The notes below the pieces were generated by a model. It was not told the origin of the DNA. It ran no database searches and saw nothing but the letters and a program-made list of their open reading frames with translations. Made by a program: the position numbers and the translations under genes. Positions 29,411-50,037 of a DNA stretch of 64,000 nt are shown piece by piece. The stretch is from Candidatus Oxydemutatoraceae bacterium. Lineage in GTDB: Bacteria; Pseudomonadota; Gammaproteobacteria; Poriferisulfidales; Oxydemutatoraceae. The stretch is taken from contig CBDCOZ010000003.1 of the NCBI GenBank assembly GCA_965220085.1, forward strand, positions 864,001 to 928,000, in the 5' to 3' direction. Each line of letters starts with the position of its first letter. Positions within the stretch are counted from its first letter, which is position 1.

Positions 29411-30660
29411 GCAGTATTGCTATTGTCGGCTTGCAATGGGGGGACGAAGGCAAGGGGAAGATTGTCGATCTCCTGTCTGACAAAACCGATGCCGTCGCGC
29501 GTTTTCAAGGCGGTCATAATGCCGGGCACACGATCATAGTCAACGGTCAGAAGCAAGTATTGCACCTCATTCCGTCGGGTGTCTTGCGTCCGAACGCAGA
29601 GTGCCTGATCGGCAGCGGGGTGGTTCTGTCTATTCCGGCGCTGATAGAAGAGATTGATTCGCTCGCGCAATGCGGCATTGATATCGTTCCGCGCCTTAAA
29701 ATTTCTCCGCTCTGTCCGCTGATTTTTACGAGTCATTGCCAGTTAGACGCAATCAACGAAACGATGCTATGCGGTCGCGCTATCGGCACGACGGGCAGGG
29801 GGATTGGCCCGGCTTATGAGGATCAAGTCGGGCGCCGCGCATTGCGCTTGCACGAGTTGCGCAATCCCGACGCATTTTCCGACAGGATCCAAGAACTATT
29901 CAAACGCCATAATTTGATTCTTGAAGAGTGCGGTCACGCCGCGATGGACTGGCACCCCGATTATGACTTTGCTATGCAGAATCGGGATTTGCTGATACGG
30001 ATGATGTGCCCGATAACGGACAGACTCAAGCAGCTTCAAGGCGAGGGAAAAAACATACTATTTGAGGGGGCGCAAGGCGCGATGTTAGATGTGGATCACG
30101 GCACCTACCCTTACGTCACGTCATCGCATACGCTTGCCGGGCACATCGCTTGCGGCGCCGGCTTCCCGGTGCGTTCGTTGCGGCACATTGTCGGTATCTG
30201 CAAAGCGTATACGACACGCGTTGGCAACGGCCCTTTCCCGACCGAAGAGCGGGGCGCCACAGGCGAGCATTTGGCACAGCGCGGCAACGAGTTTGGCGCG
30301 ACGACCGGCCGTCTTCGCCGCTGTGGCTGGCTGGATTTGGCCATGTTGCGCAAGATGGCATGGCTCAATGATGCGGATACTTTGTGCCTTACGAAACTGG
30401 ATGTTTTGACCGGACTGGATCGTGTGCGTGTGTGCAAATCCTACAAAGACGAGTCGCTGCCGTTTGCCGAGTGTGAGCCGGAGTATATTGAATTTGACGG
30501 CTGGAGCGAAGCGCTATCGGGCATCGATCAATACGACGGCTTGCCGCTTGCGGTGCGCAAGTATATCGAATATATCGAGCGCGAAGTCGGCGTATCGGTC
30601 GCGGTCATCTCTACCGGGCCGGGCCGCGAAGAAAACATTATCCGCTCGAATATTTTTTAG
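29407..30660 (+). CDS. purA: Adenylosuccinate synthetase
   Basis: QWGDEGKGK, GGHNAGHT, GIGPAY, GTYPYVTSS, EFGATTGR.RRCGW. Confidence 0.98.
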   Translation: MSSIAIVGLQWGDEGKGKIVDLLSDKTDAVARFQGGHNAGHTIIVNGQKQVLHLIPSGVLRPNAECLIGSGVVLSIPALIEEIDSLAQCGIDIVPRLKISPLCPLIFTSHCQLDAINETMLCGRAIGTTGRGIGPAYEDQVGRRALRLHELRNPDAFSDRIQELFKRHNLILEECGHAAMDWHPDYDFAMQNRDLLIRMMCPITDRLKQLQGEGKNILFEGAQGAMLDVDHGTYPYVTSSHTLAGHIACGAGFPVRSLRHIVGICKAYTTRVGNGPFPTEERGATGEHLAQRGNEFGATTGRLRRCGWLDLAMLRKMAWLNDADTLCLTKLDVLTGLDRVRVCKSYKDESLPFAECEPEYIEFDGWSEALSGIDQYDGLPLAVRKYIEYIEREVGVSVAVISTGPGREENIIRSNIF

Positions 30661-31550
30661 GCCACGCGGTCGGCGGACGGCTTGCCGTCAAGCCGCGCGC
30701 GGAGGTTCTCAAGCGCTCGCCTGCCCATGGCAATACGGGTTTCTTCGGATGCGTTGCCCAAGCATATCGAATATATCGAGCGCGAAGTCGGCGTATCGGT
30801 CGCGGTCATCTCTGCCGGGCCGCGAAGAAAACATTATCCGCTCGAATATTTTTTAGGCCACGCGGTCGGCGGGCGGCTTGCCGTCAAGCCGCGCGCGGAG
30901 GTTCTCAAGCGCTCGCCTGCCCATGGCAATACGGGTTTCTTCGGATGCGCTGCCCAAGCATATTGAATATATCGAGCGCGAAGTCGGCGTATCGGTCGCG
31001 GTCATCTCTGCCGGGCCGCGAAGAAAACATTATCCGCTCGAATATTTTTTAGGCCACGCGGTCGGCGGACGGCTTGCCGTCAAGCCGCGCGCGGAGGTTC
31101 TCAAGCGCTCGCCTGCCCATGGCAATACGGGTTTCTTCGGATGCGCTGCCTAAGCATATCGAATATATCGAGCGCGAAGTCGGCGTATCGGTCGCGGTCA
31201 TCTCTGCCGGGCCGCGAAGAAAACATTATCCGTTCGGATATCTTTTAGGCCACGCGGTCGGCGGGCGGCTTGCCGTCAAGCCGCGCGCGGAGGTTCTCAA
31301 GCGCTCGCCTGCCCATGGCAATACGGGTTTCTTCGGATGCGCTCCCAAGCATATCGAATATATCGAGCGCGAAGTCGGCGTATCGGTCGCGGGCATCTCT
31401 GCCGGGCCGGGCCGCGAAGAAAACATTATCCGTTCGGATATCTTTTAGGCCACGCGGTCGGCGGGCGGCTTGCCGTCAAGCCACGCGCGGAGGTTCTCAA
31501 GCGCTCGCCTGCCCATGGCAATACGGGTTTCTTCGGATGCGCTGCCCAAG
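30558..31550. repeat. Five tandem units of 195-201 bp, each the purA 3' end joined to the 3' end of the convergent dehydrogenase gene
   Basis: Unit starts at about 30558, 30759, 30955, 31151 and 31346; copies differ by SNPs and a 5-bp indel. Confidence 0.95.
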
Positions 31551-36948: not shown

Positions 36949-38223
36949 TTATCGCAACGGGCCTTCCAGGAAGAGGCGCAGCCGCAAGCGCAAGCTGCTG
37001 GGCACAACACGGGCGGCGGCGGAGCAGAGCATCTCGCTGACCGGCATCGCGTGGCTGTCCATGAAACTTACGCAGACCCTTATGTATTGTCCCACCTGTG
37101 CCCGGCCGGGGGTGAATATGGATACGTTGGTGGTGGCGGTGGCGCCGGGGATGGCGGAGTAGTCGCCGTCCTTTGGCGCGCCGGAAGCCGGGGCGGCGGC
37201 CTGTTGCCATTGCCACCTCAGGGTAGTTCGGTCTATGCCGTTGGGTTCGGTTATGCCTGCTGTGACGGTAGACAGCCGGGTTCCCTCGGCGTAGGTCGGG
37301 TTCTGGTCGGTGATGGCCGGGGCTATGGAGGGGCCGCCAGTGGCAGCGACTTGGGCCTCTGCTACCAGACGAATGTTGATAGCCGCCGCCTGGGCGCTGG
37401 TTTTGTTGTCGGTGCCATCGCTGCCATCGTCCACCACATGGAAGTTGAAAGAAGTATAAGTGTCGTCAGGGTCGTCAGGGTCGCTGGGATCCTGGCCCGG
37501 TACCGGGTAATAGGTCAGTTCACCAGCGGCCAGTTGGGCCACAGTTATTTCCATTGTGGGAGCATCGGCGGTAGTCAGGGGTGTGCCATCCAAGGCTATG
37601 GTGCCGCGGAATGGCACGGATTGCACGATGACAGCAGCCAGCATATCTCCATCGGCGGCATCGGTAAACGGAAAGTCGGTTGCCTTAAATATGTATGGAT
37701 TGGCGGCATTGGCGTTGACATTCACCGTGAGCGGATTTGTGAGCAAACTTACTGCCTCTGGCTTGTCATTGATGTTGGCCACAGCGGTGGCTATCTGCAG
37801 GCATCGCATCTCCGAGTTGGGGGTGGCGGCCATATCCATGAACGATGCGCAGACCTGCAGAAACTTGCCCACCTCATCATCGCCCGGAGTGAAAGCGGCA
37901 TTGGTCGCATCGGTGATGTCGGTGTAAGTACCGCCATTGGTGTCGGCCGCGCTCCACTGCCAACTGAAAGTGCCCAGGCCATCGGCATCGTCTATGGCGG
38001 TGTTCCCGCTGCCGCCGTTGGCGGTGATGACGGAGTCTTCAGTGGGAACGTTTATGCCGCTGGCGTAGGTAACCCCCGGCATGCCGGTGGCATTGCTCTG
38101 CGCTTGAGCCTGAGCGGATACGATGAAAAGCGCGAGCAACAAGAGCGACCGGAGGCCGCACCCGCTTAACTCAATGCGGAGGGGGGGGGGGGGGGGGGGG
38201 GGGGGGAACTTAGGCACGAACAT
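36949..38223 (-). CDS. Secreted modular Ig/cadherin-like protein (adhesin-like 1; A-B-A) ending LRLRLRLFLEGPLR
   Basis: Poly-Pro leader plus signal peptide (AQAQAQ); Cys-paired WQW...FTP...VG.FL.VC.SF.D modules and an N.NDxP...D.DGD...YYP module; conserved C-terminal tag. Confidence 0.85.
   Translation of the reverse strand: MFVPKFPPPPPPPPLRIELSGCGLRSLLLLALFIVSAQAQAQSNATGMPGVTYASGINVPTEDSVITANGGSGNTAIDDADGLGTFSWQWSAADTNGGTYTDITDATNAAFTPGDDEVGKFLQVCASFMDMAATPNSEMRCLQIATAVANINDKPEAVSLLTNPLTVNVNANAANPYIFKATDFPFTDAADGDMLAAVIVQSVPFRGTIALDGTPLTTADAPTMEITVAQLAAGELTYYPVPGQDPSDPDDPDDTYTSFNFHVVDDGSDGTDNKTSAQAAAINIRLVAEAQVAATGGPSIAPAITDQNPTYAEGTRLSTVTAGITEPNGIDRTTLRWQWQQAAAPASGAPKDGDYSAIPGATATTNVSIFTPGRAQVGQYIRVCVSFMDSHAMPVSEMLCSAAARVVPSSLRLRLRLFLEGPLR
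38181..38206. repeat. G26 homopolymer (poly-C on the coding strand) in codons 6-15 of adhesin-like 1
   Basis: Counted directly; the frame is open as assembled. Confidence 0.9.
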
Positions 38224-38269
38224 TATCAAATACTCTCATGAAGCGCATTATCAAGTGCGGGTTTTATGA

Positions 38270-43396: not shown

Positions 43397-44416
43397 ATGA
43401 TGCCTGCCCGGCCAAAAGACACGTTGCAACGTCCGCTTCGGGACTTGCGGATATCGGTGACCGACCGTTGTAACTTCCGTTGCAATTATTGCATGCCCGC
43501 GGACATATTCAACAGCGACCACAAGTTTCTGCAACGCGCGGAATTGCTCGGCTTTGAAGAAATACTGCGCGTCATCTCTTTGCTGGCAAAACTCGGCGTA
43601 AAAAAAGTGCGTCTCACGGGCGGCGAACCTTTAATCCGTCAAAACATCGATGCGCTGATCAAAGAGATCAGCCGACTGGGCGCCATCGAAGATATCAGCA
43701 TGACGACCAACGCATCATTGCTCGATGCAAAGATGGCGCGGCGCTTAAAAGACGCCGGGCTGTCGCGGATTACCGTCAGTCTGGATGCGCTGGATAACGA
43801 TGTGTTCCAAGCGCTGAATGGCGTCGCCATCCCGGTGACCCAAGCGCTTGCCGGGATAGACAACGCGCTCGCCGCCGGCTTCTCGCCGCTCAAGGTCAAT
43901 GCGGTCGTGAAGAGAGGGAGCAACGACGGCGAGGTGATGCCTTTGGCGCGACACTTTCGCCATAGCGACTGCATTCTGCGCTTTATCGAATACATGGATG
44001 TCGGCGCGACTAACGAGTGGAGGTTGGACGAGGTCGTGCCCGGCGCGGAGCTGATTGAAATGATCGATGCGGAGTTCCCGCTTGAGCCGATCGAAGCGAA
44101 CTACCGGGGAGAAGTCGCCAAGCGCTGGCGTTATCGGGATGGCGGCGGCGAGATCGGCATCATCGCATCGGTTACGCAACCGTTCTGTCACGATTGCGCG
44201 CGACTCAGGATGTCGGCAAAAGGAGAGTTATACGCCTGCCTCTTTGCCGAAACAGGACACGACTTGCGGAGTCTGTTGCGCAGCGGCAAGAGCGATGACG
44301 AGATCGTCCGATGGCTGCAAGATGTGTGGCGCAAGCGCAACGACCGCTACTCCGAAGAGCGCACCCAACAAGCGCAGCGGTTGCGCAAGGTGGAAATGTC
44401 CTATATCGGCGGTTGA
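43397..44416 (+). CDS. moaA: GTP 3',8-cyclase
   Basis: LRISVTDRCNFRCNYCMP, RFIEYM, FC.DC.R.R...G..Y.CL, MSYIGG. Confidence 0.97.
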   Translation: MMPARPKDTLQRPLRDLRISVTDRCNFRCNYCMPADIFNSDHKFLQRAELLGFEEILRVISLLAKLGVKKVRLTGGEPLIRQNIDALIKEISRLGAIEDISMTTNASLLDAKMARRLKDAGLSRITVSLDALDNDVFQALNGVAIPVTQALAGIDNALAAGFSPLKVNAVVKRGSNDGEVMPLARHFRHSDCILRFIEYMDVGATNEWRLDEVVPGAELIEMIDAEFPLEPIEANYRGEVAKRWRYRDGGGEIGIIASVTQPFCHDCARLRMSAKGELYACLFAETGHDLRSLLRSGKSDDEIVRWLQDVWRKRNDRYSEERTQQAQRLRKVEMSYIGG

Positions 44417-44485
44417 TCTTTTGCCCCTAAGGTATCCGGCGGCGCAGAAGGGCAGCGTTGCGGAGCGCACACAGGATGAGACGGG

Positions 44486-44574
44486 GCGCATCATGCCAAA
44501 CCAGAGCAATGCTTCTTGGGTATTCTTTATCAGGGTAACCCTTCCCGCTTTGCATGTGTTTTGGCATCATACGC
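44486..44574. mobile_element. Putative ~89-bp MITE-like element with imperfect terminal inverted repeats
   Basis: Left GCGCATCATGCCAAACCAGAGCA versus reverse complement of right end GCGTATGATGCCAAAACACATGCA; same core as the IS481-like ends at 51.6-58.6 kb. Confidence 0.45.
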
Positions 44575-44655
44575 ATTTTTCATTTCCGCGCTGTCATATC
44601 CCCCACGCTGTGATTAGTCGCCGCGCCCGAAGGCAACCGCAAACAGGGAAAAATC

Positions 44656-44900
44656 ATGAAACGAAAAAAACCAAATGGAAGCGCTGATGCTCTTGCCAAT
44701 GCTTTTAGAGATGTAATTGAGGAAGCGACCGCCCCTTTGAAGGAAGGGCATGAGATTCTTTTGGAAGAAATTATCGGAGCCAAAGCGTCCATTGAGCCCA
44801 TTGAAAAAACATGAAAACGGAACGGCAAAACAACAGCGTCCAATTTCGTGAAATCAACAAAAGGTTGGGCAAGATTGAAAAGCGAGCAAGCAACTTATAA
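44656..44900 (+). pseudogene. Small hypothetical gene, possibly frameshifted at an A6 run
   Basis: 52-aa ORF 44656-44814 overlaps a 29-aa ORF 44811-44900 (MKTERQ...FREINKRLGKIEKR); one extra A would fuse them. Confidence 0.35.
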
Positions 44901-44926
44901 CCAACCCTCACGAGGAGCGCCGACTG

Positions 44927-45474
44927 GCGCGCGCTATCGCAACGGCCCTTCGAGGAAGAGACGCAAGCGCTCCGCCAAGTGGCAAGCGCCAATCGATAGT
45001 TTGCCGTCATAGCCGCGCTGTCACACCGCGCGGATTCAATGCAGTGCGCCGCGCCATATTGCTTTGCCGAGTCGGCAATGCAGGCAATCAAGTTGCGCGC
45101 GCTATCGCAACGGTCCTTCGAGGAAGAGACGCAAGCGCTCCGCCAAGTGGCAAGCGCCAATCGATAGTTTGCCGTCATAGCCGCGCTGTCACACCGCGCG
45201 GATTCAATGCAGTGCGCCGCGCCATATTGCTTTGCCGAGTCGGCAATGCGGGCAATCAAGTTGCGCGCGCTATCGCAACGGTCCTTCGAGGAAGAGACGC
45301 AAGCGCTCCGCCAAGTGGCAAGCGCCAATCGATAGTTTGCCGTCATAGCCGCGCTGTCACACCGCGCGGATTCAATGCAGTGCGCCGCGCCATATTGCTT
45401 TGCCGAGTCGGCAATGCAGGCAATCAAGCTGTACGCGCTATCGTAGCGGTCCTTCGAGGAAGAGACGCAAGCGC
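44927..45474 (-). repeat. Three 168-bp tandem units downstream of adhesin-like 2, each carrying an orphan ...ERLRLFLEGPLR* coding copy
   Basis: Minus-strand TAG stops at 44934, 45102 and 45270, plus the gene's own stop at 45438, exactly 168 bp apart. Confidence 0.93.
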
Positions 45475-47021
45475 AAGCGCAGGCGCTCCACCAGGTTGAT
45501 GGTCATGGTGCACTCTTCGCTGTCTGCGCTGCCGGTGCCATCGATTACTCTGAAGGGGAAAGTGGCAAAGTTGGGGGTGACATCGTGGTTGCCCTCCGGG
45601 GGGTAATAGGTGAGCCGCGGTACTGAGCTCGTCGGGATTCTGGTGCCTCTGCTGATGGGCCTGGACCCGCCCTCAAGGTGCAAGGTGCCCTTGTCGGGGG
45701 CGGCTATGTTCAAGATGGCCAGTTTGTCGCCATCCTCGTCCATGAACGGGAAGTCGGAGACCTTGAAAAAGTATGGATTGGTCGCGGTTGCGGCGATGGA
45801 TACATTCACAGAGGCATCGGCGCAGGTAGGGGCGAAGTTGATATCGTTGACGCGGGTGGCGACGGAGCACAGCGGGCCCTCCACAGTCTCCGCCGTGGGG
45901 TGGCGGTCCCTGAAACTGGCGCAGACGCGGATGTACAGATTCACATGGGCTTGCCGGGGGGTGAATCTGTCCCCGCTCGCGCCGCTGATGGCGGCAAAGG
46001 GGTCATTGCCGGAGACGGATGACTGCCACTCCCACCTCAGGGTGTCGGCGTCTATGCCGTTGGGTTCGGTTATGCCTCTGGTGCTGGCGATCAGTTCGGT
46101 ATTCTGGTCGTAGGGAGTTCCGACGACGGAGTATGGCGTGGGGTTGCCGCTGGCGGCCACCTGGACGCTGCTGTCTGTTATGTTTATCGTCAGGGTGGCG
46201 GCATCGGCAGCTTCGTCGGCACGGCTGGAGCGCCCGCCATCATCCCGCACCCTGTATGTGAATGTGGCATAGCCTGCGCCGACGGTGGGGTTGGCATCCG
46301 GATAATATGCCAGAGAATCCACCTGGGTGATATTCAGAAAATTGTTGGCACGGACACATCTGGAGTTGGCAGTGCAATCAGTGCTGGGGGGCAAGCCATC
46401 CACCACCAATGTCAGAGTGCCGCGCGCGGGCGCCGACACTACGTAGATGCCATTGAGGGCATGGCCGTCCTCATCGGAAAAGGGGAAATCCGCTCGCGTG
46501 AACAGATAGGGGTCGGCGGAGCTGGCGATGTCCGGCACATTGACGTTGCTGTCGCCGCCGACGGGCCGGTCGATCACATTCACCACGGTGCCGATGCCCC
46601 GGCACCGGGTCTCGCTGTTGCCGGCGTCATCGTCAAAGGTGGCACAGACGCGGAGGAACTGGCCGACATGGACTTGCAGGGGTGTGAAGGTGGAAGCGGT
46701 GGCTCCGGCTATGGCGGAGTAGTCGCCGGCCGCCGGCGCGCCGGAGGCCGGGGCAACGGCCTGTTGCCAGGCCCAGGTGGGGGTGAATGTGGCGATGCCA
46801 TCGGGGTCGGTTATGCTGCCCTTAGTGGCGGTCAGCTGGCTGTCCTCATTGGGCCCTATACCGGGCCCTATCGCGGACTCCGACAGCATGGTCAGGTCGG
46901 TGCCGTCCGCCGCCGTCACCGCCGGCGCGCCGGTGGCGGGGCTGTTGGTCTGCGCCTGCAACTGACCGCATATGACAACAAGGGCGAGCAGGGCCAGCGG
47001 CAAGAGGCTAAGCCGCACCAT
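45438..47021 (-). CDS. Secreted modular Ig/cadherin-like protein (adhesin-like 2; A-B-A-B) ending LRLRLRLFLEGPLR
   Basis: Signal peptide (LQAQ); same modules as 36949-38223; true start may be ATG 47085, currently out of frame across the G tracts. Confidence 0.85.
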   Translation of the reverse strand: MVRLSLLPLALLALVVICGQLQAQTNSPATGAPAVTAADGTDLTMLSESAIGPGIGPNEDSQLTATKGSITDPDGIATFTPTWAWQQAVAPASGAPAAGDYSAIAGATASTFTPLQVHVGQFLRVCATFDDDAGNSETRCRGIGTVVNVIDRPVGGDSNVNVPDIASSADPYLFTRADFPFSDEDGHALNGIYVVSAPARGTLTLVVDGLPPSTDCTANSRCVRANNFLNITQVDSLAYYPDANPTVGAGYATFTYRVRDDGGRSSRADEAADAATLTINITDSSVQVAASGNPTPYSVVGTPYDQNTELIASTRGITEPNGIDADTLRWEWQSSVSGNDPFAAISGASGDRFTPRQAHVNLYIRVCASFRDRHPTAETVEGPLCSVATRVNDINFAPTCADASVNVSIAATATNPYFFKVSDFPFMDEDGDKLAILNIAAPDKGTLHLEGGSRPISRGTRIPTSSVPRLTYYPPEGNHDVTPNFATFPFRVIDGTGSADSEECTMTINLVERLRLRLRLFLEGPLR

Positions 47022-47038: not shown

Positions 47039-47063
47039 GGGGAGGGGGGGGGGGTAGGGGGGG
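47039..47063. repeat. G4-A-G11-TA-G7 tract (poly-C on the coding strand) between upstream ATG 47085 and the adhesin-like 2 ORF
   Basis: Counted directly; ATG 47085 is 64 nt from ATG 47021 (one base out of frame). Confidence 0.85.
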
Positions 47064-47527
47064 TATTATAGACTTGTTTCTTCATAGTATTTCTCATCAT
47101 GGTATGTATCTCCTTTTCCGGTAAATGCAGTTGTGCAATGCGTACTACGCTATAAATAATCCACAAACAACTGAGTGTTGTTTGTGCTCCACAAACTGTT
47201 CATTGTTTCCCTCATTTAGCGTACTCTGCCACAAAATGCAGTCCTTTGCAAGCGTCGGTATCTCCTTCTGTCTAGCGAACGAATGCCGTACTATACCACA
47301 AAGTGCGAGTTATCCGCAATACCTTCAGGATTCTGTCTCACCCCTTGCACACCCTAGCATTTCCTTTCCCCGCTATGGCGGACGAACACTATTTATGCGG
47401 GGCATGGCGGTACGGCGGTATTGCTCGCCGCTCGCCCGAAAATGACGATGACACAGCGCTATTTCACAACGGCTCCCGTTGTCGCTCAAGCGGAATCCGC
47501 TATGTCCCGCCTTGAGATGTCCGGGTT

Positions 47528-49299: not shown

Positions 49300-50037
49300 A
49301 TGCCCGACGGATTGCACTCGATGGATAAAAAGAAACTCGCTTGTCTGGAAGGCATGGGGATAGATGTGTATGTGCCGCGCGGCGCGAAGGCGGAGGATGC
49401 GGCAGACGAATCCGCTGTGAGCGCGCGACAAGCCGCGGCGGATCCCGCCGCCGCGGATGCAGCATCGAATGCCAACAGTTGGAACCTGTTGCAACAGGAG
49501 GTGCGCTCCTGCGCCAAGTGCGCCGAACTCGCATCCGCGCGAACGCAAACGGTGTTCGGGGTCGGCGATGTCAACGCCGAGTGGATGCTGATCGGCGAAG
49601 CGCCCGGCATGGAAGAAGATCGCCGCGGCGAACCTTTTGTCGGGCGCGCGGGGAAATTGCTGGACAAGATGCTGCTTGCCATCGGGCTTGACCGCAGTAC
49701 CGTTTATATCGCCAACATACTCAAGTGCAGGCCGCCGGAGAACCGCAACCCGCGGCCGGAGGAAGCGGAGAATTGCAGCGGCTACCTGCGGCGGCAAATC
49801 GCATTGGTAAAGCCGAAGATCATTCTCGCGCTGGGAGGCGTCGCGGCCTCCGCGCTGTTGGATGCGCAGACACCGGTAGGGCGGTTGCGCGGGCAAGAGC
49901 ACCGCTTGCCGGGCGGCGATATTCCGCTGGTCGTTACCTATCATCCGGCATATTTGCTGCGCTCGCCGAATCAAAAACGCGCGGCATGGGATGATTTGCA
50001 GTTTGCGTGTCGCGTAGCCGGGAGGGAATTGCCGTGA
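49300..50037 (+). CDS. Family-4 uracil-DNA glycosylase
   Basis: C..C.L, GEAPG.EED..G.PFVG.AG.LL, N.LKCRPP.NR.P, YHPAYLLR. Confidence 0.93.
   Translation: MPDGLHSMDKKKLACLEGMGIDVYVPRGAKAEDAADESAVSARQAAADPAAADAASNANSWNLLQQEVRSCAKCAELASARTQTVFGVGDVNAEWMLIGEAPGMEEDRRGEPFVGRAGKLLDKMLLAIGLDRSTVYIANILKCRPPENRNPRPEEAENCSGYLRRQIALVKPKIILALGGVAASALLDAQTPVGRLRGQEHRLPGGDIPLVVTYHPAYLLRSPNQKRAAWDDLQFACRVAGRELP

Follow-up and report, generated by a model that had tools for sequence, protein, structure and literature searches.

A minisatellite-type tandem array of a gene tail and its 3' flank in a Candidatus Oxydemutatoraceae bacterium, with a probable origin by slippage

Described systems closest to the array

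The pilE/pilS system of Neisseria comprises silent partial gene copies with a conserved 3' repeat, which serve antigenic variation. REP and BIME elements are dispersed, imperfect extragenic palindromes, and enterobacterial arrays of extragenic palindromes act as transcript-end, insulator or mRNA-stabilising structures. The MIRU of mycobacteria are described as one dispersed and apparently mobile unit family, which inserts at start codons and has a coupled ORF (PMC12548453). Direct repeats of less than 200 bp that lie close together are reported to rearrange without RecA by replication slippage, which leads to deletion or expansion (Bzymek and Lovett 2001, cited in PMC7063769).

The array described here lies in a stretch of 64,000 nucleotides from a Candidatus Oxydemutatoraceae bacterium, the whole of which is called the window in the following; positions without a contig name refer to it. 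The array is located behind the gene P0001, the product of which ends in a short C-terminal tag. The features of the locus are given below.

44656..44900, plus strand: pair of small ORFs (52 aa and 29 aa) that overlap by ATGA and converge on the array, which lies 27 nt from the end of the second
44927..45474, minus strand: tandem array, 168 bp x 3.3 (Tandem Repeats Finder and repeat search)
45431-45474 (gene), 45263-45306, 45095-45138 and 44927-44970, minus strand: 44-nt tag segments
45307..45430, 45139-45262 and 44971-45094, minus strand: spacer copies of 124 nt each, read as the gene's native 3' flank
45400..45414, 45232-45246 and 45064-45078, no strand: palindrome TTGCCGAGTCGGCAA, one per spacer
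45270..45317, minus strand: orphan tag 1 (HLAERLRLFLEGPLR-TAG), with two LR pairs fewer than the gene tail
45102..45149, minus strand: orphan tag 2 (translation and tag search)
44934..44981, minus strand: orphan tag 3, the distal one, with the Gly codon GGG and not GGA, and unique sequence after it
45438..45482, minus strand: genuine C-terminal tag of 14 codons (LRLRLRLFLEGPLR) plus TAG (translation)
45438..47021, minus strand: tagged gene P0001, an ORF of 527 aa ending in VERLRLRLRLFLEGPLR-TAG
47041..47100, minus strand: upstream ATGs (47100, 47097, 47085) and a poly-C tract (C7 TA C10 T C4)

With the MIRU-VNTR loci the array shares its head-to-tail units of tens to hundreds of bases, and the arrays of this genome as a whole share with them the position at gene ends, which leaves the flanking genes intact, and the occurrence at many loci per genome. 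In contrast to MIRU, each array of the genome has its own unit made from local sequence, and the present one sits at a convergent junction. The full unit is restricted to this locus; elsewhere only its 44-nt tag part occurs, plus partial flank matches at three paralogue loci. Coupling of a unit ORF to the start of a following gene on the same strand is not seen either, the next genes (44656-44900) being on the other strand.

The likeness to pilE/pilS consists in promoterless tandem 3' fragments, which have a conserved 3' sequence in common with one expressed member of a large family of surface-protein genes. However, pilS copies carry a donated variable region, whereas the orphan tags hold only invariant 13-15 codons, and no variable coding sequence that could be donated was found in them. 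As in REP and BIME, palindrome-bearing units are repeated just past a stop codon, but the palindrome of the array has three copies genome-wide, all of them in the array, and no further one was found in the genome at up to 1 mismatch.

The tagged gene and its C-terminal tag

P0001 looks like a secreted Ig/cadherin-like protein with a signal-peptide-like N-terminus. Pfam reported Big_9 with 28.4 bits (cut-off 23.6), and Cadherin_5 stayed under its cut-off. The AlphaFold model (mean pLDDT 85.7) is all-beta with an N-terminal helix at residues 7-22, and its last strand comprises residues 504-511 (CTMTINLV). The tag (residues 512-527) has a pLDDT of about 48-57 and no secondary structure, and is according to the model a free tail beyond the last strand, outside the last domain.

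At E values up to 0.001, 57 homologues of P0001 were found. The tag is absent from the end of all 15 metagenome-derived homologues which were inspected. The leader, passenger and 'TMTINLV' end of P0001 are also present in metagenome homologues, and three of the 15 (P0027, P0032 and P0039) run on after this motif into a PF03797 barrel, as type Va autotransporters do. In contrast to these, P0001 ends 16 residues past 'TMTINLV', in the tag, and Pfam found no PF03797 barrel in it. We also looked for a stand-alone autotransporter barrel as a partner of the tag; the sole PF03797 match is sub-threshold (C2:34995-35321, 18.7 bits, cut-off 26). The tag does not resemble the tripartite sorting signals (LPXTG, PEP-CTERM, GlyGly-CTERM), as the tail ERLRLRLRLFLEGPLR has no hydrophobic span, and none of the NCBIfam sorting-signal models reached its cut-off for P0001 (E up to 1). 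A literature text search for 'FLEGPL' anywhere in a word found no paper.

In the 2.49-Mb genome the tag LRLRLFLEGPLR-stop terminates 192 ORFs of at least 100 aa, as counted by a strict six-frame search with 224 matches in total. Proteins of 15193, 14212, 13236 and 9776 aa are among them, and by a crude longest-ORF gene caller the tagged genes account for 154074 of the 743416 coded residues (20.7%). Over the last 12 codons of 165 tagged genes the mean entropies of codon positions 1, 2 and 3 are 0.40, 0.009 and 0.85. The variation of the tag is nearly all synonymous, which indicates selection on the peptide and not on the DNA. Judged by this codon pattern, we regard the tag as a real peptide signal. 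A degenerate 33-nt tag pattern had 136 matches in the source genome, a reversed control pattern had none, and 40 relatives from the same family and order gave 0 matches.

New kinds of passenger are rare, because 184 of the 190 tagged proteins share a single BLAST cluster. Two adjoining, tag-ended subtilases of 1356 and 2037 aa (Peptidase_S8 + Calx-beta) are encoded at G000:C1:155817-166492 (L080; G000 is the source genome), and these are the only clearly different passenger class found among the tagged proteins. Just past the stop of the tag, the bases of the motif CGCGAG are conserved in 59-78% of the 165 tagged genes. TAG is the stop codon of 100 of these 165 genes compared with 553 of 2095 genes overall. 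These regularities argue for a DNA- or RNA-level signal immediately beyond the peptide tag.

At the 5' end of P0001 the upstream ATGs have a good ribosome-binding site, and they are one base out of frame with the ATG of the ORF at 47021, from which they are separated by the poly-C tract. The tract looks like a slippage-prone on/off switch of the gene. A run of 26 G residues (38181-38206) is located at the 5' end of the other minus-strand tagged gene, 36949-38229.

Structure and surroundings of the array

Tandem Repeats Finder describes the array as 3.3 copies of a 168-bp period with 97% matches, 0% indels and a score of 1047, and the repeat search found in-register copies beginning at 44927, 45095 and 45263 (identity 100, 99 and 97%). 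The first-pass annotation had three 168-bp units following the stop of the gene. The array as such is confirmed, but its onset lies 37 nt inside the tagged gene (45438-45474). The first 44 nt of the unit correspond to the tag-coding end plus 7 bases beyond the stop, and the layout is a tag followed by three times a 124-nt spacer with a 44-nt tag, that is four tags, three of them orphan. Written as A-B-A-B-A-B-A, the array has a tag copy at both ends, the terminal one being 44 nt long. Its copies are contiguous and head-to-tail without unique spacers, and the unit is built from local sequence (44 nt around the gene's stop and 124 nt of flank), as is typical for minisatellites of the tandem-duplication or VNTR type.

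Translated on the minus strand in its own frame, the gene ends in ...TINLVERLRLRLRLFLEGPLR*, and three copies of ...*IRAV*QRGYDGKLSIGACHLAERLRLFLEGPLR* follow. The orphan tags are in the frame of the gene because 168 nt are 56 codons. In every orphan copy both upstream stops are TGA and the orphan terminates in TAG; its frame comprises 28 codons from the last TGA without any ATG, and the sole start-like codon is a TTG 14 codons before the end. The translation thus agrees with the earlier description of each unit (in-frame tag and TAG, two upstream TGA, no ATG), and the palindrome which had been noted in each unit was recovered at 45064, 45232 and 45400. Since 168 is divisible by 3, long ORFs also cross the array (44771-45427 on the minus and 45044-45499 on the plus strand). 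At domain level Pfam matched none of them (0 stretches); a single score for a whole protein, 24.0 bits for Methyltransf_15, is barely above the 22-bit cut-off.

The pair of small ORFs which converges on the array has a paralogue on the minus strand at G000:C3:1660857-1661090, with 85% and 79% identical proteins and 83% over 350 nt. Each pair converges on the end of a tagged gene, from which it is separated by a tandem array. Conservation is higher in the small-ORF block than in the gene tails (67%), and no Pfam family match was obtained for the pair.

The palindrome is perfect (7+1+7), occurs once per unit, and its three matches compare with 0.01 expected by chance in the window. Spacers with such a palindrome might act as transcript-end, insulator or mRNA-stabilising structures between the convergent units, a function that we consider unlikely. 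It would fit the regular palindrome and the convergent junction, where the stop of the other gene is only 27 nt away from the array, as well as the 74% conservation of the flank between paralogue loci. The flank at C3:702580 could likewise form a hairpin at the corresponding position (GCCGAG caa CTCGGC); the possible hairpins at the like place in the two flanks lie in different registers. The gene-array-small-ORF layout recurs at a second locus (C3:1659694 to 1661090), but there an unrelated 56-nt unit takes the place of the array. The RNA of the unit does not fold better than expected (z = 0.12), as 105 of 200 shuffled sequences reach an equal or better fold. The palindrome is found nowhere else in the genome and is therefore not a dispersed element. 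It is not followed by a T-run, and no intrinsic terminator (a G+C-rich hairpin with a T-run) or terminator-like site was detected in 44927-45474 on either strand. Rfam 15 gave 0 matches at E up to 1 within 44300-45700. With the searches for folds, Rfam families, terminators and Pfam domains all null, there is no functional sign in the unit.

As repeats often cause assembly errors and only one assembly exists, a single unit that was inflated or mis-joined has to be considered too. The word depth of the collapsed unit contig, 53.3 versus 18.2 for the flank (about 2.9x; run X1, perhaps the assembly's own data), makes such an artefact extremely improbable, and so do the specific bases at which the units can be distinguished and the hundreds of arrays with clean borders in the same genome. 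A unit-specific 33-mer had 0 matches in metagenome contigs.

In the relatives the gene order trmD-rplS-moaA is kept at 4 of 4 loci examined in genus g2. The DNA past moaA differs, with an AccI restriction-modification pair in G006 and a 490-aa ORF in G001. None of the relatives has the tagged gene or the tag, and the locus comparison is thus uninformative on the array itself. None of the relatives examined is of the same genus as the source genome, and the array of P0001 is known from one genome.

A paralogue that ends at C3:1618712 has a 3' flank (C3:1618690-1618612) to which the unit aligns with 74% over 88 nt (E 3e-7), and shorter spacer matches are present in the flanks that follow the tags at C3:702580 and C3:788738. 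Of all tag flanks, only those of the array locus, 1618712 and 702580 contain the exact 15-mer GCGCGGCTATGACGG. No passenger-like sequence was found between the tags of the array. To judge from these matches, the spacer is the native 3' flank of the gene and no relic of another gene. Its conservation of 74% between paralogues with proteins only about 40-59% identical could mean constraint.

The units had also been suggested to be scars of lost or amplified paralogues. If they were what remained of separate tandem paralogues with deleted bodies, one could refer to the tandem runs in which tagged genes often occur, and to the frameshifted passenger remains upstream of 2 of 14 solitary orphan tags elsewhere in the genome. 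At the array, however, identity among the three units is 97-100% across the full 168 nt including the spacer, the spacer consists of 3' flank instead of coding sequence, and nothing passenger-like separates the tags. We regard this origin as highly improbable here, and it is close to refuted for the array, while it does fit at least those 2 of the 14 solitary orphans. Of the alternative that paralogues were amplified, the amplification stands; what was amplified is the gene's own tail with its native 3' flank and not paralogues.

The flanks at 1618712 and 702580 contain a mutually homologous stretch (31/37) at the offset of the second tag of the array. At either end this stretch matches an end of the tag (TGCGCTTGCG and TTGGCGAT), and in between it is about 60% like the tag. 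Locus 702580 is in addition itself an old repeat of two copies, which agree at 40/44 positions, lie 148 nt apart and have their junction in the final 8 nt of the tag. The stretch is probably a decayed second tag, although it could be flank with microhomology. The tag-flank-tag layout probably predates the present array, because the paralogue flanks carry the tag-ended stretch and 702580 the two-copy repeat.

The orphans are nearest to the tag of their own gene (95% over 41 nt, next best 93%), and a 24-nt core, rare codons included, is common to both; in orphan tag 1 this core is identical to that of the gene. They lack the two LR pairs of the gene's tail and carry an upstream 'HLAER', which is closer to the tail of the 1618712 paralogue than to the 'NLVER' of their own gene. 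The 'HLAER' requires gene conversion or an older version of the tail, and the mosaic of orphans and gene would fit a local duplication followed by conversion.

Arrays and orphan tags across the genome

With Tandem Repeats Finder 286 arrays with a period of at least 40 nt were found genome-wide. Within single genes lie 126 of them, with a period divisible by 3 in 113; the other 160 touch gene ends or intergenic DNA. If a period of at least 100 and at least 93% matches are demanded, 89 arrays are left, 73 of which are not inside a single gene. Arrays across the stop codon were counted at 8 of 165 tagged and 93 of 1426 untagged genes (p = 0.50), using the gene calls of the crude longest-ORF caller that underlies all these array statistics. 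The array is thus not special to the tag, as spanning of the stop is no commoner in tagged than in untagged genes. The idea that the tag-coding DNA is a recombination anchor is partly supported, in that this DNA served as local homology in an array that runs from tag to tag.

The onset of the array falls within the last 44 nt of the gene in 7 of the 8 tagged cases and in 16 of the 93 untagged ones (Fisher p about 1e-4). A clustering of array borders in the tag was rejected as confounded, since most of the tagged arrays have units of 53-58 nt, about 5 of 8 are expected by chance from the unit lengths, and several of the arrays are related.

Two other long-period arrays of the window lie at gene junctions without the tag. 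At 30549-31550 a 196 x 5.1 array covers the ends of two convergent genes, purA and that of a 2-hydroxyacid dehydrogenase, and at 49937-50470 a 179 x 3.0 array extends from the end of a uracil-DNA glycosylase gene to the start of a GNAT acetyltransferase gene. Several short-period arrays (45-95 nt; 21/54/87 nt) at 51654-53897 are located in and before ORFs of repetitive LERMEAKFDDRFKE-type coiled-coil-like sequence, and adjoin an integrase-core fragment at 52581-53342.

The number of arrays per 200 kb sampled was 30 in the source genome, 4 in G001, 4 in G002, 5 in G003 and 14 in G005, so that the rate of the source genome is six to seven times that of three of the four relatives sampled. While recA, mutS and mutL are all present in the source genome, recJ (TIGR00644) was not found in it (99% complete). 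Among the relatives recJ was found in 0 of 4 genomes of the related genus g2 and 0 of 5 of g3, in 5 of 5 of g4, 3 of 3 of g5 and 1 of 1 of g6, three further genera of the family, and in 11 of 11 of the sister family f2. Loss of recJ as a sufficient cause of the arrays was discarded, as G001 and G002 without recJ have 4 and 4 arrays, and G003 and G005 with recJ have 5 and 14.

Orphan tags were also searched for in the rest of the genome, and others exist: 31 of the 224 tag matches lack a gene body (stop-to-stop frame <80 aa). Seventeen of these are tandem, i.e. within 400 nt downstream of another tag, and are distributed over 9 loci; for instance, the gene with its end at C3:514188 is followed by three, spaced 156 nt, and the gene with its end at C3:648944 by four, spaced 58 nt. 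The remaining 14 are solitary. Besides the two with frameshifted passenger remains upstream, two match only the intact neighbouring gene, and ten have nothing passenger-like within 1.2 kb. Arrays with units of 56-58 nt were seen behind other tagged genes (G000:C3:1659677-1660556, 648591-648970, 1577994-1578454 and 802696-802929). Their units repeat only the final tag codons, the stop and a GCGAGC...GCTCGC hairpin, in up to 15.9 copies.

The orphans had been proposed as spare 3' ends that could tag a newly acquired passenger. In a wider form, units of orphan tag and flank would be conversion donors that repair or spread an export tag, or ready 3' ends for new passengers. A tag that acts as peptide signal on 192 ORFs, that is found on at least one unrelated passenger class (the two subtilases), and that must have spread, given that relatives of the P0001 family have autotransporter barrels at its place, would suit such a role. 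So would the mosaic of an identical 24-nt core with differing edges, which fits gene conversion, and the 31 orphans across the genome. However, the orphans hold only the invariant tag and consequently no information to donate, they have no start codon and two in-frame stops upstream, and arrays are equally common at untagged gene ends. In addition, 184 of 190 tagged proteins belong to one cluster, and from one gene to another the tags share only about 80-93% over their 44 nt, which is poor homology for an exchange between loci. We consider donors of this kind to be quite unlikely, and the suggestion of spare 3' ends is not upheld for orphans which have neither start nor body nor variable part. 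The more far-reaching version, in which tag and flank modules multiplied by slippage form a working stock that keeps the 14-residue export or docking tag uniform and passes it on to new bodies, appears very unlikely to us. If it were true, it would explain how the tag took the place of autotransporter barrels in about 190 genes, which make up roughly a fifth of the coding capacity.

In the reading that we consider likely, the gene tail and its own 3' flank were duplicated in tandem, in the manner of a minisatellite, by slippage or unequal exchange, and the array is tolerated. Two 44-nt tag-coding copies, 168 bp apart behind the gene, would misalign during replication or sister-strand exchange; repeated rounds would lead to four tags and three spacers and would keep the copies near-identical. 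Misalignment between tag copies is suggested because such copies form both ends of the array. A duplication beyond the intact stop, in the convergent gap between tail-to-tail genes, would disrupt nothing, as the gene retains its own stop, and could therefore be tolerated. The slippage mechanism, the neutrality of the array and the time at which its first orphan tag arose are inferred. The 44-nt repeat with its distance of 168 bp is within the size and distance range reported for RecA-independent slippage (PMC7063769), a process which was measured on E. coli plasmids; at the array the mechanism is read from the product. Most likely the orphan tags are neither translated nor used, and the array is most likely a harmless by-product of slippage and not a store of spare gene ends.

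The array is thus of an ordinary kind, a minisatellite from a gene tail, in an unusual genome. As one more gene-end minisatellite it is by itself of little import. It is a clean marker locus for copy-number variation between hosts or populations of this uncultured bacterium, and it indicates that a very abundant C-terminal tag can, through its coding DNA, supply the short homology where rearrangements start.
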